A stretch of 64,000 bases of DNA from Thermoanaerobaculia bacterium (GTDB lineage: Bacteria > Acidobacteriota > Thermoanaerobaculia > UBA5066). The notes beneath the pieces are model-generated. The model did no database searches, was not told the DNA's origin, and was given only the letters and a program-made list of their open reading frames with translations. Below, in pieces: positions 1,523 through 64,000 of this stretch. Each line of letters starts with the position of its first letter. The first letter of the stretch is position 1. The translations under genes and the position numbers were made by a program. The DNA lies in the NCBI GenBank assembly GCA_038245905.1, contig JBBRRY010000008.1, positions 32,205 to 96,204 of the forward strand. The letters are read 5' to 3'.

Positions 1523-2701
1523 CTAGAACGACCCGCCCGCGCCTCCCCCGCCGAAGCTGCCTCCTCCGCCCTGGAAACCCGGCTCGACGGGTGGCCGCGC
1601 CTCCGGAGCGTGCGCGGCCACGACCGGGACGAGCTCCAGCGCACGAAGGCGCGCCTCGTCGGCGAAGAGAGGCTCCGCCGTGAACCCGTTCCGCTCCGCT
1701 TCCGGGCCCTTCGAGAGCCAGCGGTTCAGCGCGAGCGCGAGGAGAACGAGGGCGCCGCCCGCGAACGTCAGGACGAGCCACGTCTCCGCAATGTGGACGT
1801 AGTGCCGGAGCGTGATCAGGGAGAGCGCGGCCAGGAGGATTCCCGTGTCGAGCACGAACGTCCGGCGTGAGCGAATTCCCCACCAGAGGACGGCGACGGG
1901 GAGGAACGCGGTCCCTAGAATCGACGAGATCCGCTCCCGAAAGCGCGGCCCGGGGAGTTCCAGGCCGGCGCCCCGGAGGTTCTCGACGAAGCGGTGGTCG
2001 AGCGCGTAGAGGTTCACGGCGGCGTACACACCCAGGAGCCCGGCGACGACGAGAGCGGCCGCGCATCTCCGATGGGACGGCGCCCACGAAGACCGGTCGA
2101 GGAACCGTTCGAAAAGAAACGTGAGCGCGACGCCGCAGACGACCCAGAGGAGGCGGCCCCCGGGCGCGCGCCCGAGAAGGAGGAACAGCAAGACGGCAGC
2201 GAAAAAAGCCCACACGGGGCTCCCCCAGCGCCAGGCGGCAAACGCACACGCCGTAAGCGCGGCGAGAAGGAGCAGCGTCATGCCTTCTCTCTCGCGCACT
2301 TTCAGCGTCTCCTCCAGGAACAGGAAGACGGCGGCGAGAAAGAAGACGATTCCCCAGAACGCTGTCGCGCCGGCGCCCCCGCGGAGCGCGAGAGCGGGTG
2401 ACCGCTCCTGGACTTCCGCCGCGACGACGCAGAGGGCCGAAAGGAGGAAGAGGAGCAGGGGCGCGGTTCCGATCGGCGGACGGAATGCGATCAAGAACGC
2501 CGCCGTGAGGAGCAAGAGGGCCGCCGTCACGAAGAACGCCGTCAGGAGCCTCCACAGGGGCGCCGGCAGCGGGCGTTGTTCCGGATATCGCCGGGAGATT
2601 TCTTCGAAGGTGCTCTCGTCGACGGCTCCGGCCCTCTTCCAGCCATCTGCCGCGGCGCGAACCTCCTCGACGCGCTCGAAGGCGACCCATTCACTTTTCA
2701 T
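1523..2701 (-). CDS. Multi-pass membrane protein with Gly-rich tail (GGGGSFGGGGAGGSF)
   Basis: About 10 hydrophobic segments. ATG 2701 overlaps the end of the upstream DUF2157-like gene. Confidence 0.75.
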   Translation of the reverse strand: MKSEWVAFERVEEVRAAADGWKRAGAVDESTFEEISRRYPEQRPLPAPLWRLLTAFFVTAALLLLTAAFLIAFRPPIGTAPLLLFLLSALCVVAAEVQERSPALALRGGAGATAFWGIVFFLAAVFLFLEETLKVREREGMTLLLLAALTACAFAAWRWGSPVWAFFAAVLLFLLLGRAPGGRLLWVVCGVALTFLFERFLDRSSWAPSHRRCAAALVVAGLLGVYAAVNLYALDHRFVENLRGAGLELPGPRFRERISSILGTAFLPVAVLWWGIRSRRTFVLDTGILLAALSLITLRHYVHIAETWLVLTFAGGALVLLALALNRWLSKGPEAERNGFTAEPLFADEARLRALELVPVVAAHAPEARPPVEPGFQGGGGSFGGGGAGGSF

Positions 2702-3665
2702 GGAATCCCATCCGGCGCCGAGCGAAGACGATGAAGAAGAGCGCCACAGCGGCGCTCGCGGCGGCAAGGAGGAAGGCCGCGCCCGAATCCGCATTCGACC
2801 CCTGGAAGATCACCCTCTGGAGGCCCAACCACGAGGCCACGACCGCGAGACCGAGAGGAAGCGTTCGGCCCGCGCGCAAGGCGACAAAAGCCGTCGCTCC
2901 GGCCGCGAGAAACAGGGCGAGTAGCCAGGCGCCCCATCCGTCACCTCTCTCGCCGAACACGCCCGAGAGGAGGCCGCCGAACACGAGCAGCAGGCCGGCG
3001 TTCACGTACACGTCTTCGAAGTGCGCCTTCCATTGGCGGCGAGCCGCCGCGACGCCCACGACGACGAACAGGGCCCCGCACGCGAGCGCCTCGGTGCGAA
3101 GACGCGCTGGGTCGCCGGCGCCAAGCGAGGCCCCCTTGAGGCTCACCGCGATCCCACGCCAAGCGGCAAACGACGCGAGCGCGAGGGAGAGCAACATCTT
3201 CGAATCGAAGCGGTACGCTAGGAGCACGTAGAACACCGCGACGACGAGAAGATGCCAGGGCCAGCCCGGCCCCAGGATGCGGACCTGGGTCTCGAGATAC
3301 GCGAGATCGGTCGCGACGAGGAGAGCGCCCAGAAGAAGCACGTAGTCGAAGGCGGCATGTGTCGACGCGGCCGCCCGCCACGTGAAGGGCACGGACCTCC
3401 GCCAGGCCCAGACGAGGCAGGCCGCCGCCGCGAGGCCGATCGCGAGCCCGATCGCCGCCGGACCTATCCGCTCCCGGTTCTCTTTCACGAAAAGGGCGAT
3501 CCCGCCGGTCAGAAGAAGCACGCCGGCGTAGAGCGCAGCCCTGATCTCGAGCCGCACGGATACGAGCTCGCGCCGCGCGACGCGCGAGAAGAGTCGCGCC
3601 CGGGACTCCGTCAGCACGCCCTCTTCCCGGAGGTGCTCGACGGCCAGCACGACGTCAGGATTCAC
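2691..3665 (-). CDS. DUF2157-like membrane protein
   Basis: ELVSVRLEIRAALYAGVLLLTGG followed by many TM helices. GTG 3665 is preceded by TATGCT at 6 nt. Confidence 0.7.
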   Translation of the reverse strand: MNPDVVLAVEHLREEGVLTESRARLFSRVARRELVSVRLEIRAALYAGVLLLTGGIALFVKENRERIGPAAIGLAIGLAAAACLVWAWRRSVPFTWRAAASTHAAFDYVLLLGALLVATDLAYLETQVRILGPGWPWHLLVVAVFYVLLAYRFDSKMLLSLALASFAAWRGIAVSLKGASLGAGDPARLRTEALACGALFVVVGVAAARRQWKAHFEDVYVNAGLLLVFGGLLSGVFGERGDGWGAWLLALFLAAGATAFVALRAGRTLPLGLAVVASWLGLQRVIFQGSNADSGAAFLLAAASAAVALFFIVFARRRMGFHEK

Positions 3666-4616: not shown

Positions 4617-4625
4617 AGCCGGTCG

Positions 4626-18747: not shown

Positions 18748-18824
18748 CCGAATTGTAGTGAAATGTTCTCACGGGGGCCGAGAGAACGGAAGCGCGGATA
18801 AGATGGGGCGAGCAGAGGGGCGCC

Positions 18825-35222: not shown

Positions 35223-38200
35223 TCACCGGGTCATCGGAATGTACGAGCCGTCGGAGTTGTGCTGGTCGTTGAGAACGCCATACGCGGCCCAACGCGACGA
35301 GCCGGAGAGTCTCTCGATCTTCGCCGTGCCCGCCGCGGCGCCGCGCGAAGAGAGCGGCTGATTGAACTGCTTCCACTCCCCCGGCGCGAGCGCCGCCGTA
35401 TCCGGGCTCGCGAGGACGCCGCCGTCGGCACCGTAGTACGTCACGCGCAGCGTGATCGTGTCCGCCGCGTCGCCGCGATTGACGATCGCGAGATTCGAGC
35501 GCTGGACGGCGTTCTGCTGCAGTCCGTTGACGTACGCGAGCGCTGTCGCGCTCTCGCCGAGAGTTAGCCCCGGATAGAACAGGCCGAAAGTGCCGCCGCC
35601 CGCCGCGTTCGTGAACGTGCGCGCGCCGGCTGCGAGGGAAGAGGCGGGCGTCCCCGGCGGCGCCTTGACGAGGAGTGACCCACCAACACTGTTTGTCGGA
35701 ATCGGAAGTCCGAGACTTCTTAGAAAGGCCATCGAGTCGGGCAGGATCTTCTGTTCGCCGGGCTGAAGCGTCAGCGGCACGGAGCCCGACCCGGCCGCGG
35801 AAAGCTGGGGCGAGCCCGTGTATGTCAGCGTGAGTGTCATCGGCTGACTGGCGAGGTTGGTCAGCGTGAGCTCGCTCTGGTACCCCGCCGTCGAGAGCAC
35901 GATCGGCACGAGCCGGTCAGCTCCCGTCGCGTCTCCGGGCACGAGTGGCGGGACGAACGAGCCGTCCGACGTCACGGCGTCGTTGAGAACGCCGTAAGCC
36001 GTAAATGGTGAAGCACCCGCGACGCGTGTGACGACGGCTCTTCCCGACGCCGCCTGCCCGAGCAGCGGCTGATTGAGCTGCGTCCAGCCGAAGCCCGCCA
36101 GCGTCTGATCCGCCGGGCTCGAAAGGGCCTCGCCGTTCGGACCCTGGAGCGTCACACGTAATGTCACGGCGTCCGGGCCGGCATTGACGAGGGCCAGGTT
36201 CGAGCGCTGCGCGGCGTTCTGCTGCAGGCCGAAGATCGTCGCAGTCGTCGTGGAGCTGGCCGCGCCCGTGTAGAAGAGGCCGAATGTGCCGCCCGCGCCC
36301 GGCGTCGAAGTGCGGCCGCCGATGAAGACGTCGGAAGGAGAGGAGGCGCCCTGGAAGAGGGCGCGGAGCGTGCCGATCTGGGAGCTGCCGTCGCTCGGGA
36401 TCGCGAGGGCGCTCTGCCGCAGGAAGAGGATGGTGTCGGGGACGACGCGCAGCTCTCCCGCGGCAAGCGTGAGTTGCGCGTATCCGCTCCCGGCGCCGGC
36501 AGAGGCGGTGTACTGAAGGAGAACCGTGACGGGGACGGAGGCTTTCGAGCCGAGCGTGAGCTCGGTCGTGTAGTGAGTCCCGCCCGTTCCTCCCGCATCG
36601 AGGACGACGGGCAGGAGCTGTTCGGGGCCTCCCGTGAAGGCGGGTGCGCGCACGGTGACGATGAGGGTCGCCGTCGAGACGAGGCCCAGGGCGTCGCGGA
36701 CTTTCAACGTGACGACGTAGCTGCCGGGAGCGCCGAAGGCGTGGGTGACCGGGCTGCCCGTGCCGGACGTGCCGTCGCCGAAGTCCCATGCCACGGTCGT
36801 CGGGTCGTTCGGGTCCACCTGCGTCACGTTCGCGACGAAGCTCACCGGCGCTCCGGCGTCGAACGCGTTCCCTCCGAGCACGGGCGCGATCACGGCGGCA
36901 GGCGTGGAATCGCCGGTCGGAGCCCACGCGGAGAAGACTTCGGTGTTCGCGGCGGAATCGTCGGTCCACATGACGAGGAGGTTGCCCAATGCGTCCACGA
37001 CGCCCGCGGGGTTCGTCGAGACGCCCGGGTTCGCGGACAGGTTCAAGGGCGCGCCAAAGGTCTTCCCGCCATCGGCGGAGTGCGCGTAGAAGACGTCGGT
37101 CTGGTCGTTGCCGCTGTCGTCCTGCCAGACGATGGACACTCCGCTCCTGGCGTCGGCAGCGAGGAACGGGAACATGCTCTGGCCGTCGTTATTCGAGACA
37201 TTGACCGGCGTGGAAAACGTCGATCCGCCGTCCGTGGATTTCCGGACCATGACCTCGCGGTTCAGACCGGTCGCCGTGCTGTAGCGGTTGTAGAACGTGA
37301 GGTACACGGCGTCACTCTTGTCCACGGCCACGCGGGGCGCGAAGGCGTCCACGCCCGTCTCCGAGACCGTCTTCCTCACGGAAAACGTCGTCCCGCTTGG
37401 CGCGATGGCCATTCGGCAGGTGGAGACGGGTCCCGAGGTGACGGCGGACGTCGTCCACACGAGGTAGGCGGCTCCCTTCGAATCGAACGCGAGCGAGAGG
37501 GGCTGGAGCGGGTTGATGCTGTTTTCGTTCAGGAGGGGCTGCATCGTTCCGAAGGTCGCGCCGCCGTCGACCGACCGGACCGCGTTCACGGCGAGAAGGC
37601 CGCTCGTCGGATCCTGGTCGAAAAAGGCCACCACGACATTCCGATTCGCGTCCACCGCGATCGCCGGGAGGTCCGCGTTGCGGCCCGCCACGCTGACCCT
37701 GGCCGGCGGCTGGAACGTGGCGCCGTGGTCCGTCGAGCGCGTGACCCAGATCTCTCCCGTCGATCCGTTTTGCGACGTGTACGCGACGTACGGGTTTCCG
37801 GCCGCATCGAGAGCGAGGACGCCACTTGTCGCAGCCGCCGCGTTCGCGGAGACCTTGAGAGGCACCGACCAGGTGATGCCGCGATCCGTCGAGCGCCGGT
37901 AGACCACGTCGTCGCCCGTCACGTTCTGTGTGTCGTCGTCGTGGACGAGGTGGATCGTGCCCGCGGAATCGATCCGCGGCGGGCCCGCGAGGGCCGTGAA
38001 GCCGGGCGACCGGCTGACGTTGAGCGGCAGCGAGGCGGCGCGCGCGGACGGCTGCACGTTCAGGCGCACGTTCGTCTGGCGCGTGGAGGCGGGCCCCGCC
38101 GCCGCGATCGCGAGGAGATACGTCCCGGGCGGCGTCGCGAGAGACGCGGACACGGTGAGCCGCGAGGGCTGGCCCGCCGCCACGTTCGTGCTCGAGAACG

Positions 38201-39773: not shown

Positions 39774-41102
39774 ATGCGAAATAAATGCCTTCCCCGTTTG
39801 GGTTTTCTGGCCCTTCTCGCCGCGGGCCCAGGCCCCCGAGGCGCGGCTGCCCTGGTCCCCACTCCAGCCGAGGACGCGCGTGCCATCGTCGAAGCGCTCG
39901 TCTCCTGCGGCACGCGCCATTCCCTGTCCTCCCGGACGGACGTGCGGCGCGGAATCGGATGCGGACGCGACACGGTTGTGCGCCGCCTCGAAGCGGTCCA
40001 AAACGAGTCCAGAAAGCGGATGCGCGTCGTCATCGACAGATTCGAGACGAGCGGCTCCCGCACCAGGAACGCGACCGTCCCGATGGAGAACGTCTACGCG
40101 ATTCTCCCCGGCACGGACGCCGTACTCGAACGTACGGCGTTCGTCGTGTCGGGCCACTACGACTCGATGCCCTCGGACGTCATGGACCCGAAGGCCGACG
40201 CCCCGGGCGCGGACGACGATGCGTCCGGCACGGCCGTGTCGATCCTCGCCGCCCGCGCCCTCGCGCCGAAGCCCGCGCGCGCAACCCTCGTTTTCGCCGC
40301 CGTGGCCGGCGAGGAGCAGGGCCTCCTCGGGGCGAAGCGCCTGCTCGAATGGCTGACGAAACAGGGTTACACGGTGGGCGGCATGATTACGTGCGACATC
40401 GTCGGCGCAACGAACGGATCGGCCGACCGCCGTGTGCGCGTGTTCTCGGAGGGCGGTCTCGATGGCATCGACTCTCCGGGACGACAGATGGCGCGCCTCG
40501 TGGAGGAGGTCAACGGGAAGGACATCGTACGCCTTGTCTTCCGGTTGGACAGGTTCGGACGCGGCGGCGACCACCGGCCTTTCGTCGAGGCGGGTCTCCC
40601 CGCGATCCGCTTCACCGAGCCGCTCGAGGACTATCACCACGAGCACCAGACGCCGCGTACCGAGAACGGGATCGAATACGGCGACCTCGTGAAGTTCATG
40701 GACTTCGACTTCGTCGCGGCGACGGCGGCGGTCGTTGTCAAGACACTGGAGGAGATGGCCAATGCTCCGGACCCGCCCACGCGAGTCACGCTGGGTGGAG
40801 CGGTAACGGACTCCGCGAAGATTTTCTTGGAAGGTAACAAGGACGAGGAGCGCGCGAGTTACGAGATCCTCTGGCGGGAGACCACGGACGCGCGATGGAA
40901 CGTTCAGAGCACCATCGACGCAAGATCCTCCGCCGCATCTTTCTCTTCGGTGCTCTCTTCGATTTCCACCGACAACCACTACTTCGCCGCGCGCAGCGCC
41001 GGAAAAAACGGGAAGCGTTCGCTTGCCGTCCCGGCCGTCGCGGCGCCGAGGCCTCCGTCTTCTCCCGCGCCCCGGCCCGACCGTCCGGAGCGGACGGAAT
41101 AG
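39774..41102 (+). CDS. M28-family metallopeptidase
   Basis: SGHYDS, GADDDASG, GEEQGL, GRGGDH and HEH motifs. Confidence 0.9.
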   Translation: MRNKCLPRLGFLALLAAGPGPRGAAALVPTPAEDARAIVEALVSCGTRHSLSSRTDVRRGIGCGRDTVVRRLEAVQNESRKRMRVVIDRFETSGSRTRNATVPMENVYAILPGTDAVLERTAFVVSGHYDSMPSDVMDPKADAPGADDDASGTAVSILAARALAPKPARATLVFAAVAGEEQGLLGAKRLLEWLTKQGYTVGGMITCDIVGATNGSADRRVRVFSEGGLDGIDSPGRQMARLVEEVNGKDIVRLVFRLDRFGRGGDHRPFVEAGLPAIRFTEPLEDYHHEHQTPRTENGIEYGDLVKFMDFDFVAATAAVVVKTLEEMANAPDPPTRVTLGGAVTDSAKIFLEGNKDEERASYEILWRETTDARWNVQSTIDARSSAASFSSVLSSISTDNHYFAARSAGKNGKRSLAVPAVAAPRPPSSPAPRPDRPERTE

Positions 41103-41104
41103 AT

Positions 41105-42898
41105 ATGAGCATCACTCCTCTCGACTGGGCGATCGTCGCCGCCTACTTCGTCCTCTCGATCGGCATCGGCCTCGCCTTCACGAAGAAGGGCGGCGAGTCG
41201 CTCGAGCAGTACTTCGTCGCGGGGCGCGCCGTGCCGTGGTGGCTGGCGGGCGCCGCCATGATTGCGACGACGTTCGCCGCCGACACGCCGCTCGTCGTGA
41301 CGGGCCTCGTCGCCGCGCACGGCGTCGCGGGCAACTGGATCTGGTGGAACTTCGTCATGTCGGGCACTCTGACCGTCTTCCTCTACGCGCGCCTCTGGCG
41401 CCGCGCGAAGGTCATGACGGACGTCGAGTTCGCGGAGATCCGGTACGGCGGCAGGCCCGCGACGTTCCTGCGCGGCTTCCGCGCGCTCTACCTCGCACTG
41501 CCCATCAACCTCATCATCCTCGGCTGGGTCAACCTCGCGATGGTAAAGATCCTCCATATCTCGCTGGGAATCCAGCCGATCTGGGCGGTGGGAGTCTGCT
41601 TCGTCATCACGGTCGGCTATTCCGCGGCGGCGGGCATGTGGGCGGTCCTCTGGACCGACCTCGTCCAGCTCGTCATCAAGATGACCGCCGTAACCCTGCT
41701 CGCGTGGTTCGCCGTGAAGAAGGTGGGCGGAATCGGCGCGCTGAAAACGGGGCTCGAGAAGCACTTCGGCTCGATCGACACCGCCATCTCGTTCCTGCCG
41801 CCCGCCGGCTCGGCGTGGATGCCCATGATCGCGATCTTCACGTTCCTCGCGGTGCAGTGGTGGGCCGCGTGGTATCCGGGCGCCGAGCCGGGCGGCGGCG
41901 GGTACGTCGCGCAGCGCATTTTCTCGGCGCGGTCGGAGCGCGATGGCATCCTCGCAACTTTGTTTTTCAACGTCGGACACTATGCGCTCCGTCCGTGGCC
42001 GTGGATCATCACGGGCCTCGCGACCGTCCTCCTCTATCCGAACGGAGTGATGGTGAACGGCCAGATGGACAAGGAAGCGGCCTACGTGCAGGCCATGGTC
42101 GATCTCCTGCCGTCGGGCTGGAAGGGTTTCATGCTGGCCGGCTTCGCGGCGGCGTACATGTCGACCGTGGGGACTCATTTGAATTGGGGGGCGTCGTATC
42201 TCGTTGGGGACGTGTACAAGAGATTTCTGAGAAAGGACGCGAGCGAGGCCCATTACGTCGCAGTCTCGCGCTGGACGACCGTAGGTCTTTTTCTCGCTTC
42301 CATCGTCGTCACGTTGAATCTCTCGACGATCGAGGGCGCGTGGCGGTTCCTCCTCGCGCTCGGGAGCGGCACCGGCCTCGTCCTCATCCTTCGCTGGTAC
42401 TGGTGGCGCATCAACGCGTGGAGCGAAATCTCGTCGATGCTCGCCTCGATGGTCGTCTCCGTGACGAGCATCCTGCTGATCCGGAATCCGCTCCCCAGGA
42501 CCGACCCGGGGTACGGCGCGGAGGAGTTCCGCATCCAGGCGATCGTCATGCTGCTCACCGTCGCGGTCACGACGGTCGTCTGGGTCGCGGTCACGTTCCT
42601 GACGAAGGCCGAGCCCGATTCGACGCTCGACGCGTTCTACCTGCGCGTGCGCCCCGGCGGGCCGGGCTGGGAAACGGTCTCGCGGCGTCTCGGCTTCGGG
42701 CGCGAGCCCATCCCCGGCGGCGCGATGTCGTTCGTGAACTGGATCCTCGGGATCGTCCTCGTCTACACCGCGCTCTTCGGCATCGGCAAGCTCGTGTTCG
42801 GGCAGCTCTGGATGGGATTCGCGCTCCTCGACGTCGCGGCCGTCTGCTTCATCCTCATCATGTGGAGCCTGAAGCGGCAGGAGAAAATCGAGGCTTGA
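41105..42898 (+). CDS. Sodium:solute symporter (SSS) family protein
   Basis: YFVAGR, ATTFAADTP, WTDLVQ, YVAQR and AAYMST. Confidence 0.92.
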   Translation: MSITPLDWAIVAAYFVLSIGIGLAFTKKGGESLEQYFVAGRAVPWWLAGAAMIATTFAADTPLVVTGLVAAHGVAGNWIWWNFVMSGTLTVFLYARLWRRAKVMTDVEFAEIRYGGRPATFLRGFRALYLALPINLIILGWVNLAMVKILHISLGIQPIWAVGVCFVITVGYSAAAGMWAVLWTDLVQLVIKMTAVTLLAWFAVKKVGGIGALKTGLEKHFGSIDTAISFLPPAGSAWMPMIAIFTFLAVQWWAAWYPGAEPGGGGYVAQRIFSARSERDGILATLFFNVGHYALRPWPWIITGLATVLLYPNGVMVNGQMDKEAAYVQAMVDLLPSGWKGFMLAGFAAAYMSTVGTHLNWGASYLVGDVYKRFLRKDASEAHYVAVSRWTTVGLFLASIVVTLNLSTIEGAWRFLLALGSGTGLVLILRWYWWRINAWSEISSMLASMVVSVTSILLIRNPLPRTDPGYGAEEFRIQAIVMLLTVAVTTVVWVAVTFLTKAEPDSTLDAFYLRVRPGGPGWETVSRRLGFGREPIPGGAMSFVNWILGIVLVYTALFGIGKLVFGQLWMGFALLDVAAVCFILIMWSLKRQEKIEA

Positions 42899-46236: not shown

Positions 46237-46243
46237 CCGCGCC

Positions 46244-48259
46244 ATGAATCTCCGTCTGCGGATCGCGGCGGCGTGCCTCCTCGGCGCGCTCCTCGCGTGG
46301 CACCGGCACGGAACCGTCGTCTCGGAGAGAGGCGGCCGCTTCGAGGACCCCGACGCGATGTTCCACGCGCGCCGTGCGACCCGCGCGGTGGCCGAGGGTA
46401 CGCTCCTCCCCCCGGTGACGGACCGCTTCGAGAACTTTCCCGGCGGCGGACTGGCTCTCTGGCCCCCCCTTCACGATGCGACTCTCGCGCTCCTCGCCCG
46501 CGCGGGAGGGTCGACGCGGGAGGACCCTGCGCTCGGAATGACGACGGCCGCCTTGCTCCCCGTCATCGAGCTCGTTCTCGCGGTGATCGTCGCCGCCGCG
46601 ATTGCCGGCCGCCTCGGGGGGGGCCCCGGGGGCGCGGCGGCTGCGGCGTTCGCCCTCGCGCTCACGACCGCCGTCGTTCGCCGCGCCGCCTTCGGCGAGA
46701 TCGACCACAACCTCACCGAGGTACTGCTCGGCCTGCTTCTGCTTTATTTCGTCGCGAGAATCTCTGCAGGAGAGGCGGCTTCTTCGAAGGGTCATGGGCG
46801 CCCGCGCGAGCCGTGGCGTTCGATCGTTCTGGCGGGCGTCTGGGCAGCCCTTCTGCTGGTGAGCCTTGGTTTCTACACGGGCCTCGTGATGTCGGCCGGG
46901 GTCGTCGGAGCGGCGGCGTGCGTCGCGGCGCTCGTGGACGCGGGAGACGGCCGCGCGCGCCGCACGCTTCCTTCGCTCGCCGCAGGCTTCGCCCTGGCCG
47001 CGGCGAGCCTCCCCTTCTTCGCGAGCCTTCGCGTGAAGCCCGATCCCGCCGACCCATGGCGCCTGGGTCCCGTGCACAGCCTGCTTCTTGCCGGAGCGGG
47101 CGCCGGAAGCGCGCTGGTCGTCCTCTTTCTCATACGAAGAAAATCTCCTGCGCCGTCACACGAACAACCGCACGACCGGATGCGCCTGAAACTAGCACTC
47201 AGCGCCCTCCTCCTCGCGACCGCGGCCGCGGCCGCGCAGCCGCGCACCGCGTGGAGCGCGCTCGCGGCGGGCCTCGGATTCGTCGGCGCCCGGGACCCGT
47301 GGCTCGCGACGATCGACGAGTTCCAACCGATGTGGGCGGCGCCGCTCGCGCTCCAGGCCCTGGCGCCCGCGCAGCCCGCGTTGCCCGTCGCGCTCGCCGC
47401 GCTCTTTTTCGCCGCGCGCGCGTGGCGGAAGCTCGACCCGGCGCGCCGCGCCACGCTCGCACTGGCCGCCGTCCCGGCGCTCCTCTTTCTCGTCCTCGCG
47501 CTCTCGCAGAAGCGCTTCCTCCCGCCCGCCAGCGCGTTCCTCGCCGCCGCGGCAGGCGTCGCATGGGCCTTCGACGCGTCTCCCGTCGCCATCTGGACCC
47601 GCCGCGCCGTCTTCGCGGCCGCGGTGCTCGTCACGCTCGACGTCTTCGGCCTGACGTACCTCCGCCTCACGTTCAAGGACGAGCCCGACGCCCTCGTCTC
47701 GGCCGGCGAGGCCGCAGCCGGCGTCTTGCGCGACGTGACGCCGCCGCCCGGCGACCCGCCCGCCTGGGGCGTTCTCGCCCCGTGGGACTATGGGCACGAG
47801 ATCGTGCGGTACTCCGGGCGCGCGGTGGCGCTGAACAACTTCGGCACGATGCATCCCGGCTTCGCACGCGCGATGGGCATCTTTCTCGAGACCGACCCCG
47901 CGAGGGCCGTCGCCGAGCTCGACGCGCTCGGCCTCCGATACGTCTTCGCGGTCTACCCGCCAAACGTGATCCCGAGCGGCGCTCAGGCCGTGCATCGCGA
48001 CCCGGCACGGTACTTCGTGGGCGGCTACCACCCCGACCGGCTCACGCCGTACGCGCCGACGGAGGAAGGAGCGCGTACGTTCCTCGTGCGGCTGCACCTC
48101 GAAAACGGCGCCCCGAAGGCCGACGATCTCCCGGCGGCGCGATTGGCCCTCGCTCGCCTCGCTCTTCGGTGGGAGTCGCCGCAGGCCGGACCCGATCCTT
48201 CGGGTTGGCCCGTGCCTTTTATGAAGCTCTTCGAGGTGCGGCCCGCGCCGGCACGCTGA
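46244..48259 (+). CDS. STT3/AglB/PglB-family oligosaccharyltransferase-like membrane protein
   Basis: DPDAMFH, GEIDH, TIDEFQP, APWDYGH and NNFG in canonical order, with about 13 TM helices and a C-terminal soluble domain. Confidence 0.8.
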   Translation: MNLRLRIAAACLLGALLAWHRHGTVVSERGGRFEDPDAMFHARRATRAVAEGTLLPPVTDRFENFPGGGLALWPPLHDATLALLARAGGSTREDPALGMTTAALLPVIELVLAVIVAAAIAGRLGGGPGGAAAAAFALALTTAVVRRAAFGEIDHNLTEVLLGLLLLYFVARISAGEAASSKGHGRPREPWRSIVLAGVWAALLLVSLGFYTGLVMSAGVVGAAACVAALVDAGDGRARRTLPSLAAGFALAAASLPFFASLRVKPDPADPWRLGPVHSLLLAGAGAGSALVVLFLIRRKSPAPSHEQPHDRMRLKLALSALLLATAAAAAQPRTAWSALAAGLGFVGARDPWLATIDEFQPMWAAPLALQALAPAQPALPVALAALFFAARAWRKLDPARRATLALAAVPALLFLVLALSQKRFLPPASAFLAAAAGVAWAFDASPVAIWTRRAVFAAAVLVTLDVFGLTYLRLTFKDEPDALVSAGEAAAGVLRDVTPPPGDPPAWGVLAPWDYGHEIVRYSGRAVALNNFGTMHPGFARAMGIFLETDPARAVAELDALGLRYVFAVYPPNVIPSGAQAVHRDPARYFVGGYHPDRLTPYAPTEEGARTFLVRLHLENGAPKADDLPAARLALARLALRWESPQAGPDPSGWPVPFMKLFEVRPAPAR

Positions 48260-55275: not shown

Positions 55276-55305
55276 GCGACGCGCGGCACGGCTAGACTCC
55301 GGGCC

Positions 55306-57933
55306 ATGGCCGCGCCGGTCCCCCCGCGCCTCCGCGTAACGGCGAGCCCTGGGTGGGAAATCCTTACGCCGGTCGCATCGAAAACGCGCGCGCTCTCGAC
55401 CGTGACCGATCCCTTCGTCTCTCGCGTGCTCCTCGACGCGCGCTTGGCCCTCGTGGACTCCCGTTCGGCGCGCCCGCGCCGGGGGGCACCGGCCTCAGAC
55501 GGCCTTCTCACCGCGGAAATCGACGAGCCGTCCCCTGCCGCAGGATGGGTCGTAGTGGCGCGCCATCCATCCGGCGCTCTGACATTCCATACGGCGCGCG
55601 GAAGCGGGCAAGGCATCCGCCCCATCGACGTGCGCCTCCCGGCTCCGCCCACCGCGCGGAGCGGGCCCGGCGCCCTGGTCCGCGTGTTCTTCCTGCGGGT
55701 CCTGGGCGCCGGGGCGGGCGTGCTGCTTCCGGTCCTCGCGCGTATCTGGGAGAAGAAACGCTTCCTCGCTTCGAGGACGCCGCTCGGCCTCGTTGCGCTC
55801 GCGGTCCGGGACGGCCGCCTCGTCACGACGCGCGTCCGCAAGCTCACGCTCCCGCCGCCGCCCGCGCGAAGCCTCCTCTTCGTGCACGGCACGTTCTCGC
55901 ACGCGGCCGCGGCGTTCCAGGATCTCGCGGCCGATCCGGCCCTCTTCGCGGCCCTTTCGCGCCGTTACGACGGCCGCCTTTTCGCGTTCAACCACCTCAC
56001 GGTGGGAACCGCACCGGACGCAAATGCCCGGGACCTCCGCGCGCACTTGCCGCGCGGGCCCGCGCTTCTCGACGCGGTTACGCATTCCCGCGGCGGCCTC
56101 GTCCTCCGCGCGCTCGCCGGGCAAAGCCCTCGCGTCGCTCCTGGCGTCGCTCCGGGCGTCCTTCTCGGGCGGGTCTTCTTCGCCGCATCGCCGAACGAGG
56201 GCACGCCTCTCGCCTCGCCTGCGCGCTGGCACTCCCTCGCCGCCTGGCTCGCGAATCTCGGCGAGATGTTTCCCGGCAACGCGCTCGCGTTCGGGTTTGA
56301 TTTTGTGTCGGAGGCTCTCGTGTGGATGGCCCGCCGCGCGGGCGGCACGCTGCCCGGCATCGCCGCGATGGACCCCGCCGGAGAGTTTCTCGAGAAGCTG
56401 AACGAATCCGGGGCACGGCACTACGAGGCGGGCGCGGCTGTCGCACGCTTCGAGCCCCGGGGGAGCGCGGCTCGCCGGCTCCTCGATGCGGCTGCGGGAG
56501 TCTTCTTCGAGGACCCGAACGATCTCGTGGTCCCCACGGAAGGCGGCCTCGCCCTCGGCGCCGCGCCCCCCGTGCCCGAAGTGCACACCGTGCGCTTCGG
56601 GCACGGCGCCCTCGTTCATCATCTGAATCTTTTTGCTCAAGAAGAGACGAGGAAAAAGATAAAGATCTTCTTAGAAGGTGAAGAGAGCCGCCGCTCGCGA
56701 GGGCCGGCGGGGCGTCAACCCCCTTCTAAGCACGCGCGCGGCGCGTCTTCTCCCCGGTCTTCTCCCCAATCTTCAGCAAAATCTTCCTCTTCCTCTTCGT
56801 CTTCGTCCTCCTCACGCTCGGCGCGCGGCGTGCGCCGATTCGAGCTGGTCCTTGTCGGCGGACGGGGCGGAGCGCCCGCGCACCTCCTCGCGAGCTTCGG
56901 GGGCGCGCGCGTCGTCGAGCCCTTCGAGACCAGGGGCGGCGCCGGGGGCGAGCGCATGCGGAGCATCATCGAGATGCACGAGAGAATTCTTGCTGCCCTG
57001 GAGGGCGGCGGAACTCGTCCCCTTCCCGCTGCGAAGGAGCTCCGCGCCTACGGCAGCGTGCTCTTCGAGGCGCTCTTCCCGGGCACTGTCCGGCGGCTGT
57101 GGGACGAGGCGCGCGCAGGAACGAAGGGGACTCTGGAGCTCGTCTTCACTCCAGGGCTCGACTGGATCGCCGACAAGCCGTGGGAGCTCGCGTGGGACGC
57201 GTCGCGCCGCCGCTTCCTCGCCGACGACGCGATTCTCGTGCGAGGCGTCTTCGGGGCACCGCCCGCGGCGGCGCCTGATCCGAGACGCGGTCCGCTCCGT
57301 GTCCTCCTCGCCCTTGCCGAGCCACGGGACGCGGCCCCCGTGGCCGCGCGTCAGGAGACCGCCGCGATTCGGGCGGCCCTCGCGCCGCTCGTCCGGTCCG
57401 GGCACGTGAAGCTCGAGGTGCTCGCGTCCGCGACGCCCGCGGCCCTGCACAAGAAGCTCTCGGAGGGCGGCGCGGACGTGCTTCATTTCGTGGGACACGG
57501 CGCGTTCGACGAAAAGGAGAAGACCGGCAGCCTGTTCCTCGTGGACGCACGCGGACGCGCACTTGCGGTGGACACGGATCACGTCCTGCGCCTCTTCTCG
57601 GGGCGCGGCTTGAAGCTCGTCTTCTTGAACGCGTGCGAGACGGGCCGCGGCGGCCGCACGGACTTCCTGCGCGGCGTCGCGCCGGCTCTCCTCGCGGGCG
57701 GCGTTCCGGCCGTGCTCGCGAACCAGTACAAGGTCCTCGATTCGTCCGCGACGGCCTTCGCCCGGCATCTCTACTGGGGACTCGCGAAGAGTCACACCCT
57801 GGGCGCGGCCGCGCGGGAGGCGCGTGTCGCCGTGTCCTATGCGAAGGGTGCCGAGCCGATGGACTGGGCGGTTCCCGTGCTCTACGCGCGGGACACGTCG
57901 CTCGTCTTCTGCCGCCCGCGCCGCGGCGCGTGA
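55306..57933 (+). CDS. Alpha/beta-hydrolase plus CHAT (caspase-like) fusion protein
   Basis: FVHGTFS and THSRGG lipase-type motifs; Ser-rich linker; PWE, HFVGHG and LNACETG CHAT motifs. Confidence 0.85.
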   Translation: MAAPVPPRLRVTASPGWEILTPVASKTRALSTVTDPFVSRVLLDARLALVDSRSARPRRGAPASDGLLTAEIDEPSPAAGWVVVARHPSGALTFHTARGSGQGIRPIDVRLPAPPTARSGPGALVRVFFLRVLGAGAGVLLPVLARIWEKKRFLASRTPLGLVALAVRDGRLVTTRVRKLTLPPPPARSLLFVHGTFSHAAAAFQDLAADPALFAALSRRYDGRLFAFNHLTVGTAPDANARDLRAHLPRGPALLDAVTHSRGGLVLRALAGQSPRVAPGVAPGVLLGRVFFAASPNEGTPLASPARWHSLAAWLANLGEMFPGNALAFGFDFVSEALVWMARRAGGTLPGIAAMDPAGEFLEKLNESGARHYEAGAAVARFEPRGSAARRLLDAAAGVFFEDPNDLVVPTEGGLALGAAPPVPEVHTVRFGHGALVHHLNLFAQEETRKKIKIFLEGEESRRSRGPAGRQPPSKHARGASSPRSSPQSSAKSSSSSSSSSSSRSARGVRRFELVLVGGRGGAPAHLLASFGGARVVEPFETRGGAGGERMRSIIEMHERILAALEGGGTRPLPAAKELRAYGSVLFEALFPGTVRRLWDEARAGTKGTLELVFTPGLDWIADKPWELAWDASRRRFLADDAILVRGVFGAPPAAAPDPRRGPLRVLLALAEPRDAAPVAARQETAAIRAALAPLVRSGHVKLEVLASATPAALHKKLSEGGADVLHFVGHGAFDEKEKTGSLFLVDARGRALAVDTDHVLRLFSGRGLKLVFLNACETGRGGRTDFLRGVAPALLAGGVPAVLANQYKVLDSSATAFARHLYWGLAKSHTLGAAAREARVAVSYAKGAEPMDWAVPVLYARDTSLVFCRPRRGA
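56641..56812. repeat. Convergent pair of purine-tract/AGAT..CTTAGAAG motifs
   Basis: AAAGATCTTCTTAGAAGG (56661-56678), CCTTCTAAG (56722-56730) and CTTCAGCAAAATCTTC plus pyrimidine tract (56771-56812). Confidence 0.7.
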
Positions 57934-57936
57934 TCC

Positions 57937-58395: not shown

Positions 58396-58450
58396 CGTCG
58401 CACGTGCCGCCGGCGCCTCGCGCGCGGCCCTCACGAAACGCGCGCGCGTG

Positions 58451-58885: not shown

Positions 58886-58928
58886 GGGGAGGAATTTTAG
58901 CGCAGCGCCCGGGGCCCTGGTCAGGCGG

Positions 58929-59228: not shown

Positions 59229-59276
59229 ATCGCCTCGAAGTCTACGCCGGACGCCGGGTCATGCTACGTTTCCATC

Positions 59277-61460: not shown

Positions 61461-61462
61461 GG

Positions 61463-63088
61463 ATGTCCGACGCCTCACGCACCCTCGCCACCGAGGTCGC
61501 CCGCCGGCGCACCTTCGCGATCATTTCGCACCCCGACGCGGGCAAGACCACGCTCACGGAGAAGCTCCTTCTCTACGGAGGCGCCATCCATCTCGCGGGC
61601 TCGGTCAAGACCCGCAGGAACGCAAGCCGCCACACGACGAGCGACTGGATGGAGCTCGAGCGCCAGCGCGGCATCTCGATCACGACGAGCGTGCTGCAGT
61701 TCCCGTACGCGGGCCATCACGTGAACCTCCTCGACACGCCCGGTCACAACGACTTCTCGGAAGACACGTACCGGACGCTCGCGGCCGCGGACGCCGCCGT
61801 GATGCTCATCGACAGCGCAAAGGGCGTCGAGCCGCAAACGATCAAGCTCTTCGAGGTCTGCCGTATGAGGCGGATCCCGATCGTCACGTTCATGAACAAG
61901 CTCGATCGCGCGGGCCAGGATCCGCTCGACCTCATGGACGAGATCGAGCGCATCCTCGGAATCCCATGCCACCCCGTGACGTGGCCGATCGGCTCCGGGC
62001 CGGATTTCCAAGGCGTCTACGACCGCTGGGGGAAGACGCTGCTGAAATACGAAAGAGGAGATTCTGCGAAAGGAGAGAGGGTCGCCCCGGTTCAGGTCGC
62101 CACCCTCGACGATCCGGCGTTCATCGAGTCGCTCGGCGCGGCCGCACACGCGACGCTCATGGAAGAGCTTGAACTCCTCGAGTCCGGACACGCCTTCGAT
62201 CAGGCGGCGTTCCTGGCAGGCCGCATCACGCCAGTCTTTTTCGGCAGCGCGAGTAACGACTTCGGCGTCGAGCCGTTCCTAAAGCGCTTTTTGGAGCTGG
62301 CTCCCGCGCCTCTCCCGCGCAAGACGACGACCGGCGTCGTGGACCCGCTCCAGCCGGAGTTCTCGGGCTTCGTCTTCAAGATCCAGGCGAACATGGATCC
62401 CGCTCACCGCGACCGCATCGCGTTCGTGCGCATCGTGTCGGGGAAGTTCACGCGAGGCATGGAAGTCCTGAACCCGCGCACGGGCCGGACGCTGAAGCTC
62501 GCGAAGCCGCTCCAGTTCCTCGCGCAGGAGAGAACGCTCGTCGAGGAGGCCTGGGCCGGCGACATTCTCGGGCTCTGGGACGCGGGCAACCTCCGTATCG
62601 GCGACTCGCTCGCCGAGGGACCGGGCGTCGAGTTCGAGGGGATCCCGCGCTTCTCGCCTGAGTTCTTCAACCGCGTCGTCATGCTCGACCCCGCGAAGAG
62701 GAAACAGCTCAAGAAGGGCCTCGACCAGCTCTCGGAGGAAGGCGCCGTTCAGGTCTTCCACGACGCCGAGCGTATGGAGCGGGACCCCGTCCTCGGAGCC
62801 GTCGGCGTCCTGCAGTTCGAGGTCATCCAGCACCGGCTCCGGTCGGAATACGGCGCCGAGATCTCCTACGCGCGGCTGCCGTTCACGCTCGCGCGCTGGG
62901 TCGAGGGCGAGGACTTCGACCGCAGGAAGTTCGACGACCCGCCGAGCGTCGCGTGCCTCGTCGATCTCGAGGGCCGGCCGCTCGTACTCTTCCAGAGCAA
63001 GTGGCATCTCGAGCGCGCCGAGCGCGAGAACCCGAAGCTACGCTTCATCGCCGCCGTCCAGCCCGGGCGCGCGCGAGCCACGGCGTAG
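61463..63088 (+). CDS. prfC: Peptide chain release factor 3
   Basis: RRRTFAIISHPDAGKTT, DTPGH, NKLD and FKIQANMDPAHRDR. Confidence 0.97.
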   Translation: MSDASRTLATEVARRRTFAIISHPDAGKTTLTEKLLLYGGAIHLAGSVKTRRNASRHTTSDWMELERQRGISITTSVLQFPYAGHHVNLLDTPGHNDFSEDTYRTLAAADAAVMLIDSAKGVEPQTIKLFEVCRMRRIPIVTFMNKLDRAGQDPLDLMDEIERILGIPCHPVTWPIGSGPDFQGVYDRWGKTLLKYERGDSAKGERVAPVQVATLDDPAFIESLGAAAHATLMEELELLESGHAFDQAAFLAGRITPVFFGSASNDFGVEPFLKRFLELAPAPLPRKTTTGVVDPLQPEFSGFVFKIQANMDPAHRDRIAFVRIVSGKFTRGMEVLNPRTGRTLKLAKPLQFLAQERTLVEEAWAGDILGLWDAGNLRIGDSLAEGPGVEFEGIPRFSPEFFNRVVMLDPAKRKQLKKGLDQLSEEGAVQVFHDAERMERDPVLGAVGVLQFEVIQHRLRSEYGAEISYARLPFTLARWVEGEDFDRRKFDDPPSVACLVDLEGRPLVLFQSKWHLERAERENPKLRFIAAVQPGRARATA

Positions 63089-64000
63089 ATGTCCCGGCGG
63101 AGGCGCTGGGCGGTGGCCGTGGCCGCGGGTTCGATCGCCCTCGGCGTCTGGCTGTTCCAGAATGCCTCGCTCCCTCGCCTCCGGGCAGAGTTCATCCCGT
63201 GGATGCACCGGCTCGGGTGCTACCGCGACGCGCTGGAGACGACGCGCGCGGCGCTGCGCGCGAAAAGCGCGCAGCCGGGGGACCCGGAAGGCATCGCCGC
63301 CATCCGGGCCTGGGCCTGGAAGGACCTCGATCGGCTTGCCCTGGTGTCGTTCGATGTCGAGGGGAAGCCGGAGATAGAGAGGAAGAAAGAGAAAGACAAA
63401 GATTTCTTAGAAGTATGGGAGCTGCGGGGGTCGGCTGTCTTCGTCGTGGATGGATTTCGCGCCGACGGGGCGCGCGTCGAGAGATCGGCGCTGGTTTCGC
63501 TGCTGCTTCCCGACTCGAATTCGGCCGCGGGTATGCCTCTTACCTTCTCAGCAAATCTTTCTTCCTCTTCCTCTTCCTCCGAACGCATAGAACCAAATCC
63601 CCGCTTCCATGACGCGACGCTCGCATCCGGCCTCGGCGCCCCCCGCGGCGATCCTCCGAAGAAGCTCACGAACCGTCTCATCGACGGCATCTGGCCGGGC
63701 TCGGGCGTGGCCGCGCTCGACTTCGATCAGGACGGTGCCGAGGACCTCTTCGTGGGCGACGGCGTGCGCTCGATCCTGTACCGCAACGACGGGCAGGGGC
63801 ATTTCACGGACGTGACCGAGCGCGCGGGGCTCGCGGCAGCGGCGTCCTCGCTCGAGGGTCCTTCGGGAATCGCCGCGACGGGCGTCGCCGCGGGCGACGT
63901 CGACGGCGACGGGTTTCCCGACCTGGCCGTGACGGACGCATTCGGCCCGACGCGGCTCTTCCGAAACCGCGGCGACGGCACGTTCGAGGAGATCACGGCA
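63089..64000 (+). CDS. FG-GAP/CRTAC1-like protein, runs off the window
   Basis: Manual translation: N-terminal TM, DFDQDGAEDLFV..LYRNDGQGHFTDVT, GDVDGDGFPDL..LFRNRGDGTF. Confidence 0.85.
   Translation, partial: MSRRRRWAVAVAAGSIALGVWLFQNASLPRLRAEFIPWMHRLGCYRDALETTRAALRAKSAQPGDPEGIAAIRAWAWKDLDRLALVSFDVEGKPEIERKKEKDKDFLEVWELRGSAVFVVDGFRADGARVERSALVSLLLPDSNSAAGMPLTFSANLSSSSSSSERIEPNPRFHDATLASGLGAPRGDPPKKLTNRLIDGIWPGSGVAALDFDQDGAEDLFVGDGVRSILYRNDGQGHFTDVTERAGLAAAASSLEGPSGIAATGVAAGDVDGDGFPDLAVTDAFGPTRLFRNRGDGTFEEITA
63371..63580. repeat. Convergent pair of purine-tract/AGATTT..AGAAG motifs
   Basis: AAAGATTTCTTAGAAG (63398-63413) and CTTCTCAGCAAATCTTT (63544-63560), each flanked on the outside by a purine or pyrimidine tract. 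Confidence 0.75.

Follow-up and report, generated by a model that had tools for sequence, protein, structure and literature searches.

A lineage-specific AT-rich DNA motif overprinted on coding sequences as convergent pairs in an uncultured acidobacterial genus

The question raised by this locus is whether a short, AT-rich and purine-rich motif that recurs inside unrelated genes of a GC-rich chromosome is maintained as DNA or as a peptide, and what kind of machine might read it. The window, the whole stretch of 64,000 nucleotides that was analysed, was studied together with the genome to which it belongs and with genomes from related species, genera and families. Lineage-specific words over coding DNA, such as DUS, USS, Chi and HIP1, are rare windows onto the machines that read chromosomes, and the host of this motif is an uncultured and environmentally widespread acidobacterial genus. 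The genome comprised 3,797,265 bases, with a GC content of 68% and a completeness of 96.4%.

The core of the motif was TTTCTT-H-GAA-D-G (12 nt), AT-rich and set in a purine-rich arm. All sites were scored with a 19-nt core matrix derived from the same genome. At a threshold of at least 16 bits, the genome contained 624 sites and an order-2 Markov genome 20; at a threshold of at least 20 bits, the numbers were 479 and 4. When the 8-mers of the genome were ranked by over-representation relative to the maximal-order Markov expectation, the top four were all parts of the motif: TTAGAAGG (129 observed, 48.4 expected), TAGAAAGG (74 and 25.3), AGATTTCT (139 and 65.7), and TAGAAGGT (95 and 41.0). The pattern TTTCTT[ATC]GAA[AGT]G occurred 250 times and its backwards-read control 4 times, while exact 12-mers numbered 38 forward and 38 reverse, the reversed-pattern control giving 1 and 0. 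The recurrence proposed by the initial annotation is therefore real, and stronger than was seen there; a literature search found no described element matching the consensus, in agreement with the same source.

The copies present in the window are shown in Table 1. The eight main copies reported earlier (2594, 35712, 40817, 42218, 47135, 56661, 62055, and 63398) scored from 18.5 to 28.2, and nine of the ten main listed copies were clear matrix sites. Two reverse copies had been proposed: that at 63544 was a minus-strand site (23.6), and that at 56771 (GATTTTGCTGAAGA) was a variant form with a score of only 5.6, though it was kept in most of 11 orthologous loci (two were one base off, and L008 carried another sequence). 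Among the copies proposed as weaker, the one at 46755-46790 was marginal (14.2), and those at 8235 (1.1), 28500 (-3.5), and 38202 (-7.3) were not supported. One extra weak site was detected at 7135 on the minus strand (15.3) and was not retained in genome G004. The window matched no Rfam family. No Pfam family was matched by the ORF opposite the first arm, and the sole match of the ORF opposite the arm at 47129 was AglB-core, weak and below the cut-off.

Table 1. Position, orientation, matrix score, and context of the motif copies in the window.
Feature	Position	Strand	Score (bits)	Context and layout
Lone arm, GGAGATTTCTTCGAAGGTG	2594..2612	+	27.4	Antisense in ORF 1523-2794(-)
Lone arm	35711..35729	+	18.5	Antisense in large ORF 35223-39920/40979(-)
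Lone arm	40818..40836	+	27.1	5' of the SSF transporter gene, where ORFs overlap
Lone arm	42219..42237	+	25.3	Sense, gene 40895-42898(+), Sodium:solute symporter domain
Lone arm	47129..47147	-	20.3	Antisense in ORF 46232-48259(+)
Convergent pair unit	56627..56812	.	28.2 (main + arm)	Inter-domain linker of DUF7379-CHAT protein (55306-57933, +); variant arm ~56627-56645, purine tract, main + arm 56662-56680, variable interior with short inner inverted copy ~56731-56743, variant - arm 56768-56786, pyrimidine tract to ~56812
Lone arm	62056..62074	+	18.6	Sense, variable loop of the prfC GTPase domain (61463-63088, +; Pfam)
Convergent pair unit	63372..63590	.	26.1 (+ arm); 23.6 (- arm)	Within FG-GAP repeat protein (63089-64000+, +); purine tract, + arm 63398-63416, conserved coding interior, - arm 63541-63559, pyrimidine (CTCTTC)n tract

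Copies are overprinted on both genes and spacers. Synonymous-codon shuffling revealed a clear enrichment: 247 sites of at least 20 bits were found in 2,658 predicted CDS (3.27 Mb) against 7, 18, 18, 17, and 16 (about 15) in five shuffles, with the reservations that the genes were called with a crude codon-log-odds caller that over-extends ORFs and that TTCTTCGAA-type matches may be plain FFE/FEE coding sequence. At a threshold of at least 24 bits, 157 CDS sites compared with a mean of 3.2 after within-gene shuffles. Inside predicted CDS lay 237 of the 479 strong sites (115 sense, 122 antisense), and lone arms were also evenly divided (18 sense, 19 antisense). The T0 of the core fell at codon positions 1, 2, and 3 in 34, 44, and 39 of 117 in-frame pairs, and frame-0 copies carried TTG or TCG instead of TAG, in a set pre-selected as stop-free. 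The location within genes is backed by Pfam domains or orthologue alignments for the DUF7379-CHAT protein, the SSF symporter, prfC, the FG-GAP protein, and the cysteinyl-tRNA synthetase (CysRS). The SSF domain spans residues 106-516 of its protein (Pfam), the DUF7379 and CHAT domains, a widespread two-domain architecture, flank their unit within one ORF, and FG-GAP repeats continue 3' of the other unit in the same frame (Pfam).

Codon usage was in accordance with the earlier claim that the motif imposes scarce codons: in long ORFs, TTA, ATA, CTA, and AGA occurred at 0.19, 0.42, 0.67, and 1.5 per 1000, respectively. The motif forces the rarest codons of this 68% GC genome into conserved genes, among them prfC, cysS, and the symporter gene. 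The symporter arm is translated as K-R-F-L-R-K, in which the rare codon AGA is used twice, and its 19-mer (AAGAGATTTCTGAGAAAGG) is identical in four of four species, whereas adjoining synonymous sites vary. The arm 5' of the same gene was found in all three aligned species. In the DUF7379-CHAT protein the arms were kept at 11 of 11 orthologous loci (the variant minus arm at most of them) and the rare TTA codon at 8 of 11. The interior was replaced among loci, the anchor-to-anchor length being divisible by 3 in 10 of 11; the left gene frame was stop-free in all 11, and in L007 it was not the CHAT frame. Orthologous sites were conserved between species at 66-88% identity. Because the motif exceeds the shuffle null, occupies all frames and both strands, and is conserved as 19-mers beside drifting synonymous sites, it represents a constraint at the DNA level, by selection or drive, and not a peptide motif, as the initial annotation had maintained.

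The defining feature of the motif, absent from that annotation, is the convergent inverted pair. An inverted partner was located 30-320 nt downstream of 335 of the 472 strong copies, and upstream of only 12. The working unit is formed by a pair of independent arms that point towards each other across 50-250 nt: the spacing had a median of 113 nt (5th-95th percentile 53-248 nt) and was free of 3-nt and of 10-11-nt periodicity, the interiors were unrelated to each other and 28 to ~290 nt long, and arms of the same pair resembled each other as did arms of different pairs (0.439 vs 0.434), without covariation. Within predicted genes lay 79 of 153 pairs. A role of the pairs as terminators was rejected, since just 4 of the 153 were placed between convergent genes. 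Strict orientation, free spacing, and the lack of phasing suggest that the reader tracks DNA or acts in a polar manner rather than by spatial bridging. Convergent pairing with free spacing is a strict rule shown by none of the known classes of such words. It would imply a direction-sensitive reader, which could be sought by phylogenetic profiling of the 26 motif-bearing genomes against the motif-free sister genera.

Comparison of orthologues gave indications of how the arms arose. The prfC arm was present in five species and absent from two (G013 and L013) at equal length and with near-identical amino acids; about 18 of 30 bases differed, with AGA/GGA/AGG codons in place of CGC/GGC/CGC. The arm at 35711 was retained in G013 and had been replaced in G004 through substitutions alone, with no indel. 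The left arm of the DUF7379-CHAT unit (KIFLEGEE) overlies an ancestral helix also found in distant homologues. In CysRS both arms lie in loops 8-27 amino acids longer than those of the motif-free genera g2, g3, g6, and g9, the ~75 amino acids between them are conserved host sequence also present in those genera, and single species have lost one arm of the pair with no visible consequence. In a four-species alignment of the FG-GAP protein the interior was conserved and all changes in tract length were multiples of 3 or 6. Flank identity of at least 0.75 to any other arm was observed in 13 of 479 arms, the remainder being at the level of a column-shuffled null; copies share the 12-13 nt core and a purine bias, nothing more, and on the outside the arms fade into purine tracts with no sharp limit. 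As the arms of CysRS and of the FG-GAP protein flank conserved host coding sequence, which motif-free genera also possess, these pairs were not inserted as one unit, and their arms were gained separately around it. A gain in length at these arms would also be expected from a small inserted sequence. A single inserted or copied element was rejected as the source of the pairs, whose interiors are unrelated or, in these two proteins, conserved host coding sequence.

The distribution of the motif is lineage-specific: each of the 26 genomes of the genus (g1) carried 21-210 exact 12-mers, a ten-fold range among species, and in the sister genus g11 it was present at a low level (1-16 copies) in seven of eight genomes. 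The exact 12-mer was found in 0 of 26 genomes from eight other genera of the family and in 0 of 16 genomes from two other families of the order (including the unpublished G025 and G030). Within the genome, 324 clusters were separated by a median gap of 5.3 kb (about one per 5-8 kb), so that the earlier description of an element every few kilobases holds on average; the distribution is patchy (coefficient of variation 1.26), with motif-free gaps of 45-78 kb and normal GC content, a poor fit to a uniformly spaced structural site. Orientation was not related to the sign of GC skew in this genome (116/104 vs 109/90, p = 0.70), and the lack of replichore skew speaks against the KOPS/Chi-like signal suggested previously. 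In G011, sites of like orientation were weakly clustered on the contig (runs test, p = 0.03).

The reading preferred here, with a probability of roughly 40%, is that of a direction-sensitive, polar DNA signal, related in manner to uptake sequences or Chi and kept by selection or biased transmission. Arms would be written into tolerant DNA, that is, spacers, protein linkers, loops, and even existing helices, by substitution and small in-frame expansions, and would then be held against the GC and codon bias by purifying selection or biased transmission (molecular drive). Like DUS/USS or Chi, they would act as polar marks of 'self' that are read by a machine for DNA uptake or for recombination/repair, each arm promoting the processing or transfer of the DNA 3' of itself; DNA uptake was also among the functions suggested by the initial annotation. 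If an arm were favoured only when downstream of another arm pointing at it, convergent pairs would be the stable arrangement; this mutual hitch-hiking is our own proposal, for which a literature search found no precedent. The genome encodes ComEC, DprA, a ComEA-like HHH_3 protein, two secretins, and seven T2SSE ATPases. Competence genes are near-universal, and this machinery is only permissive for the uptake reading. A cluster density far below that of DUS/USS, together with the gaps of 45-78 kb, would be unusual for an uptake or repair signal acting genome-wide.

Chi and KOPS are over-represented oriented words on coding DNA, read by DNA-tracking machines, and HIP1 of cyanobacteria is an over-represented palindromic word on coding DNA whose function is unassigned. 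The present motif is longer than these, lacks replichore skew in this genome, and follows a local convergent pair rule that none of them has. The likeness to DUS/USS is closer: as far as the available text of two reports (PMC2397512; bioRxiv 10.1101/2025.10.24.684340) describes those systems, both are short conserved words in hundreds of copies, lineage-specific and equally divided between strands, that occupy permissive gene parts in several frames as well as intergenic DNA, and the weaker presence of the motif in g11 may resemble a dialect. The available text of Treangen et al. 2008 (PMC2397512) describes DUS as highly conserved, in permissive locations, and with too many differences from homologous sequence for point mutation; here also the flanks diverge around a conserved motif, and new copies differ from the homologous sequence too much for stepwise mutation. 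DUS/USS pairs lie at most 21 nt apart and form terminators (PMC2397512), whereas the pairs described here are 50-250 nt apart, mostly in ORFs and rarely (4/153) between convergent genes. The motif is also about five-fold less dense and patchy, its arms carry long purine tracts, and its host is an uncultured acidobacterium without known competence.

A bolder version of the preferred reading, considered unlikely, is that of a new class of signal, a polar self-propagating word that persists only as convergent pairs whose arms carry each other. An arm would exert a bias on the uptake, repair, or gene conversion of whatever DNA lies ahead of it, and pairs would have colonised linkers and loops of essential genes throughout the genus. 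To our knowledge, and after a literature search, no uptake or Chi-like drive system is known outside the Proteobacteria; if true, this would be the first known to us, and a visible case of a DNA-level driver remodelling protein sequences.

A selfish miniature element of REPIN or MITE type, a single-stranded hairpin doublet moved by a transposase supplied in trans and tolerated when inserted in frame, is regarded as rather unlikely. The dominance of inverted doublets, the pairing of arms in the minimum-energy fold of 90 of 128 units, the ten-fold variation of copy number within the genus (21 to 210), and the longer CysRS loops at arm positions are all consistent with it. In the available text on REPINs, 93% of doublets are inverted, as here, and they are likewise hairpin-capable, lineage-specific, and present in hundreds of copies; they are also extragenic, conserved over their full length, accompanied by a RAYT gene, and spaced at a fixed 71 or 110 bp (PMC3116915). 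About half of the present copies are in ORFs, their spacing is free, with unrelated interiors of 28 to ~290 nt, and copies share just 12-13 nt. Several arms arose without an indel, the arms of CysRS and of the FG-GAP protein, flanking conserved host coding sequence, did not arrive as one unit, and orthologous sites are conserved between species at the identities given above. No Y1/RAYT transposase was found (PF01797 was unmatched in the 96.4% complete genome, and matched in 6 of 14 control genomes), nor a class of longer units fit to be the autonomous element. In-frame residence in ORFs is known from RPEs, described in the accessible part of one report as palindromic repeats translated within unrelated protein-coding genes, ~150-bp homologous units inserted whole and encoding a conserved peptide (PMC10969869). 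Here, by contrast, two arms enclose either host sequence or an unrelated linker, and all three frames are used to read the arms.

An architectural or topological site, in which a nucleoid protein, gyrase, or a two-fold complex would wrap or loop the 50-250 bp between the arms and selection would act on chromosome structure instead of transmission, is improbable. REP/BIME pairs of Escherichia coli bind gyrase and IHF, and the DNA-level constraint, the indifference to strand, the pair as unit, and the stiff AT-rich and purine-rich arms bordering GC-rich DNA are compatible with such a site. The broad spacing (53-248 nt) without helical phasing is not, as short protein loops or wraps usually need phasing; the very uneven clusters, with gaps of up to 78 kb, and the species in which one of two paired arms has been lost with no apparent effect also argue against it.

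Decidedly improbable is an element acting at the RNA level, the purine arm pairing with the downstream pyrimidine arm in a sense or antisense transcript to give a long imperfect stem that would act in processing, in RNA stability, or in silencing untranslated antisense RNA through Rho. A convergent pair does read identically in a transcript of either strand, the arms were paired in 90 of 128 folds, and reversal of the right arm costs ~4.5 kcal/mol. The arms lack covariation; however, with G-U pairs allowed, GA-rich and CU-rich tracts have many registers open to them, so that strict covariation is unnecessary. Against this reading, the units did not exceed length-matched random genomic segments in stability (-67 vs -74 kcal/mol), divergent inverted pairs would fold equally well yet are ~28 times rarer, lone arms showed no sense bias, ribosomes would melt most stems within genes, and the window lacked an Rfam match.

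The ~200 pairs per genome are far above the counts typical of invertons. Flipping of the inter-arm segment by a site-specific recombinase, giving alternative protein linkers, is hardly credible: inverted repeats do border short intragenic segments, the DUF7379-CHAT interior is hypervariable yet in frame, and intragenic invertons are described in the available text of one report (bioRxiv 10.1101/2023.03.11.532203), but in all species examined the interiors of both CysRS and the FG-GAP protein consist of coding sequence that is conserved and oriented, and the arms are asymmetric, without a recombinase-like dyad. Assembled contigs from four runs showed one form at both pairs of the window, although contigs cannot reveal minor forms.

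The motif also matters for annotation, as its arms add charged and Ser-rich stretches to the proteins that carry them and, in spacers, hold long false ORFs open.

The window covers positions 32205-96204 of contig C8 in genome G000, which belongs to an uncultured member of the Acidobacteriota and was available as an assembly of 113 contigs, with a size of 3,797,265 bases, a G+C content of 67.8% and a completeness of 96.4%; a 16S gene was absent from this assembly. Whole-genome 8-mers were counted and compared with the numbers predicted by a maximal-order Markov model. The strongest over-representation was that of four words, AGATTTCT (139 copies, 66 expected), TTAGAAGG (129, 48 expected), TAGAAGGT (95, 41 expected) and TAGAAAGG (74, 25 expected), and all of them are pieces of the recurrent motif described in the initial annotation. 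A position matrix was made from the motif copies and trimmed to a core of 19 nt. With a threshold of 16 bits this core found 624 sites in the genome and 20 in an order-2 Markov control; with 20 bits the numbers were 479 and 4, respectively.

The logo of the 479 strong sites consisted of purines at positions -9 to -7, A/T, T (0.78), T (0.96), T (0.89), C (0.99), T (0.97), T (0.95), H (A 0.47, T 0.28, C 0.24, G 0.01), G (0.99), A (0.99), A (0.92), D and G (0.96). The flanks of these sites were also rich in purines, with 73% over 24 bases on the upstream side and 69% over 17 bases on the downstream side. One copy of this core, TTTCTT-H-GAA-D-G, within its purine-rich stretch is designated here as an arm. 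When scored with the matrix, nine of the ten main copies that had been listed in the window were strong sites and the copy at 56771 was a variant, while three of the weak copies were unsupported. A second arm form (GAATCTTTTTGCTCA... and GATTTTGCTGAAGA) had a low matrix score, yet it was kept in most of 11 orthologues, so the matrix may miss a family of arm variants. The strict pattern TTTGCTGA[AG]AA was not enriched genome-wide (2 vs. 2).

The sites were not explained by chance or by a peptide motif. The refuting test named in the initial annotation was run by permuting synonymous codons inside the 2,658 predicted genes, one gene at a time; the 247 in-gene sites of at least 20 bits were reduced to 7–18, and the 157 of at least 24 bits to about 3. 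The strong in-gene sites were distributed on both strands (115 sense and 122 antisense) and in all frames: among 117 pairs of arms in a through-open frame, the T0 of the core was at codon position 1, 2 and 3 in 34, 44 and 39 cases, and the arm was read, according to the frame, as ISLKG, DFLEG or DFLRR. A peptide motif such as KIFLEG was thus ruled out, and the selection on DNA rather than on protein proposed in the initial annotation was sustained, as was its statement on rare codons, since the arms use the genome's rarest codons, with TTA at 0.19 and AGA at 1.5 per thousand. In the same 117 pairs the free centre base was T or C wherever TAG would be a stop, although the set was chosen to be stop-free and this does not constitute an independent test. 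An extended Shine–Dalgarno sequence or a complement of the 16S 3' tail was set aside, as was a promoter of leaderless genes, because most copies had no downstream start codon and the position table showed no ATG signal, to which the variable centre base is added in the case of the promoter.

The unit is the convergent pair, two arms facing each other, and this is the main new result. A partner on the opposite strand (at least 14 bits) was located 30–320 nt downstream of 335 of the 472 strong arms and at the same distance upstream of only 12; relaxing the threshold to 8 bits gave 368 and 25. Neighbouring sites of at least 18 bits within 300 nt were in plus-then-minus order in 153 cases and in minus-then-plus order in 4. 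The purine tracts of the pair are directed outward, and several successive pairs are present in some genes. The spacing was free (median 113 nt, 5th–95th percentile 53–248), without periodicity at 3, 10, 10.5, 11 or 12 nt and without triplet or helical phasing. Belonging to the same pair did not make two arms more similar (identity 0.439, vs. 0.434 for arms from different pairs), covariation between paired arms was not detected at the free positions, and the flanks had a close relative in just 13 of 479 arms. Convergent pairs at 0.6–4 kb did not form a class, which excluded an autonomous insertion sequence bounded by arms.

Concerning their location, 79 of the 153 strong pairs were inside predicted genes and 22 overlapped a gene end; the intergenic ones were between tandem (32), divergent (16) and convergent genes (4), the last figure excluding a terminator. 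In 88 of the 153 pairs the frame that codes best to the left and to the right of the unit is one and the same and runs through it without a stop. In 81 of these 88 the DNA between the arms was codon-periodic in that frame (GC1/2/3 of 0.755, 0.555 and 0.80), which was the only one of the six with a positive codon score. The orientation of the motif was related neither to GC skew nor to the local gene strand in the window's genome. Four stretches of 50–78 kb had no site of 16 bits or more and a normal GC content (0.68); given that sites are on average a few kb apart, stretches of this length are well beyond what chance would leave. The coordinates of these and other features are shown in the table.

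Features of the window, its genome and genome G011 discussed in the text (G000, genome of the window; G011, another genome; C, contig)
Feature	Coordinates	Context
Convergent pair	window 56627-56812	between DUF7379 (aa 190-366) and CHAT (aa 581-860) in one 875-residue ORF
Second arm form	window 56627-56645 and 56768-56786	
Replaced linker interior	window 56680-56770	orthologous loci L007, L008, L009 and L011
Convergent pair	window 63372-63590	inside FG-GAP protein gene; interior conserved as coding DNA in four species
(CTCTTC)n microsatellite	window 63560-63587	pyrimidine tract after right arm, FG-GAP protein gene
AT-rich stretch	window 18737-18771	between divergent 16654-18747(-) and 18825-20222(+)
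Motif-free stretches	G000:C3:48778-126766; C2:2737-70961; C20 (whole, 60.7 kb); C10:36771-88324	
Four-site cluster (+ - - -)	G000:C40:15806-16259	about 300 nt upstream of ComEC-domain ORF (C40:16586-18952)
One-orientation runs	G011:C1, 0.16-3.04 Mb	15 consecutive minus copies at 2.20-2.55 Mb

The architecture of the DUF7379-CHAT protein is common to nearly all of the 120 homologues listed. In its 11 orthologous loci both arms were in place and the rare TTA codon was retained in 8, while the interior was exchanged wholesale, with 207–362 nt between anchors; this length was divisible by 3 in 10 loci. The frame of the left part of the gene had no stop through the pair in any of the 11 loci; in L007 (362 nt) the CHAT frame differs. 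In four species (L007, L008, L009 and L011) the linker contains a different interior, roughly 200 nt long, in which there are extended GC-rich inverted repeats (CCCCGGATGTCCGGAGTCAAGGG ... CCCTTGACACCGGACATCCGGGG); the frame is kept in three of them and broken by the length in L007, where a frameshift or an assembly error may be responsible. In the FG-GAP protein gene, the purine and pyrimidine tracts varied in length solely by multiples of 3 or 6. At the place of its microsatellite, the genome G004 (loci L095/L096) has 66 additional nt of (CTCTTC)n in frame, that is, 22 residues more in the protein. Contigs from four sequencing runs covering 55001–64000 had no joint at either pair, although contigs cannot show minor forms and this observation is given no weight.

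Syntenic DNA from five relatives (72–89% identity) was also compared. The 19-mer of the symporter gene, AAGAGATTTCTGAGAAAGG, was unchanged in four of four species, with variation at the adjoining synonymous sites. The arm of prfC was found in five species, with one additional in-frame TTT, nearer to the consensus, in G001, and was missing from G013 and L013. Genes with and without this arm were equal in length and encoded nearly the same peptide (ERGDSAKGER vs. ERGDGNRGER or ERGEGVRGER), but about 18 of 30 bases differed, the codons being either AGA/GGA/AGG or CGC/GGC/CGC. The left DUF7379-CHAT arm (KIFLEGEE) lies on a helix also present in motif-free homologues of 43–48% identity (FLWNALRGEP, WIASRLWGDP and others), and thus was written over pre-existing sequence. 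In CysRS both arms are in loops 8–27 residues longer than those of motif-free genera, and single arms have decayed or been deleted within the genus (right arm in G013, right core in G004, left core in G003). According to these comparisons, arms originate by substitution and small in-frame expansions, and they can be lost. The interiors of the CysRS and FG-GAP pairs are host sequence, which excludes the insertion of a MITE or RPE as a single unit.

The exact 12-mer TTTCTTAGAAGG was present in all 26 genomes of the genus, with 21–210 copies in each (0–3 for the reversed-pattern control), and in seven of eight genomes of the sister genus, with 1–16 copies. Eight further genera of the family, represented by 26 genomes, had no copy, and neither had two further families of the order, represented by 16 genomes that include the unpublished G025 and G030. 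A looser pattern gave 35 copies in G057, of the sister genus, part of them as convergent pairs. In G011 the exact 12-mers were arranged in long runs of one orientation (runs test, p = 0.03; longest run, p = 0.006).

The motif belongs with the lineage-specific overprinted DNA words. More specifically, we tentatively propose, with a probability of about 0.4, a signal of the DUS/USS kind with a polar reader. Two sources (PMC2397512; bioRxiv 10.1101/2025.10.24.684340) describe DUS and USS with exactly the properties found here: constraint on the DNA, permissive locations, a highly conserved word, new copies with more differences from the homologous sequence than stepwise change would account for, and confinement to one lineage, in our case with a trace in the sister genus. 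The strict orientation rule together with the free, unphased spacing points to a putative reader acting with polarity along the DNA. Each arm would favour the transfer or repair of DNA on the side into which it points and would persist only when another arm points at it, from which convergent pairs would result. The genome encodes ComEC, DprA, a ComEA-like protein, two secretins and seven secretion-type ATPases, a set compatible with uptake but only permissive. Against this proposal are the low and patchy density, with gaps of 45–78 kb at normal GC, the purine tracts, which it leaves without explanation, and the lack of replichore skew in the window's genome, which also disfavours the KOPS/Chi-like signal suggested initially. 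Furthermore, known uptake-sequence pairs are tight terminator stems (PMC2397512).

Among the alternatives, a decayed or atypical mobile doublet is unlikely but retains the most weight. In its typical form, the REPIN, it was rejected: compared with the traits given in PMC3116915, the sites are not extragenic, their spacing varies, conservation is confined to the core and a RAYT gene was not found in the 96.4% complete genome. An architectural binding site is slightly less probable. An RNA element folding as a hairpin is more doubtful still, considering the lack of arm covariation, a stability not above the genomic background (-67 vs. -74 kcal/mol), the approximately 28-fold rarity of divergent pairs, which are equally able to fold, and the absence of sense bias in lone arms; known RNA families had no match in the window. 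Inversion of the interior is very improbable, since essential interiors keep a single orientation in every species examined. The remaining probability is reserved for something not yet considered.

The literature search, with supplementary files outside its scope, found no described element with this consensus, in agreement with the initial annotation, no description of a paired, oriented, intragenic signal of such kind and no paper linking Acidobacteria with uptake sequences, the single match being a paper on a Neisseria genome. Among the matches listed for the motif 11-mer the titles were unrelated, and no paper with both Thermoanaerobaculia and natural transformation was found. Three traits set the motif apart from every overprinted word known to us: its arms are rich in purines, they follow the rule of convergent pairs, and they enclose host coding sequence. 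The nearness of the four-site cluster to the ComEC-domain ORF may be a coincidence. The AT-rich stretch between divergent genes ranks among the eight richest in AT in the window, as identified in 20-nt segments with at most six G+C; it has no relation to the motif and resembles a normal promoter region.
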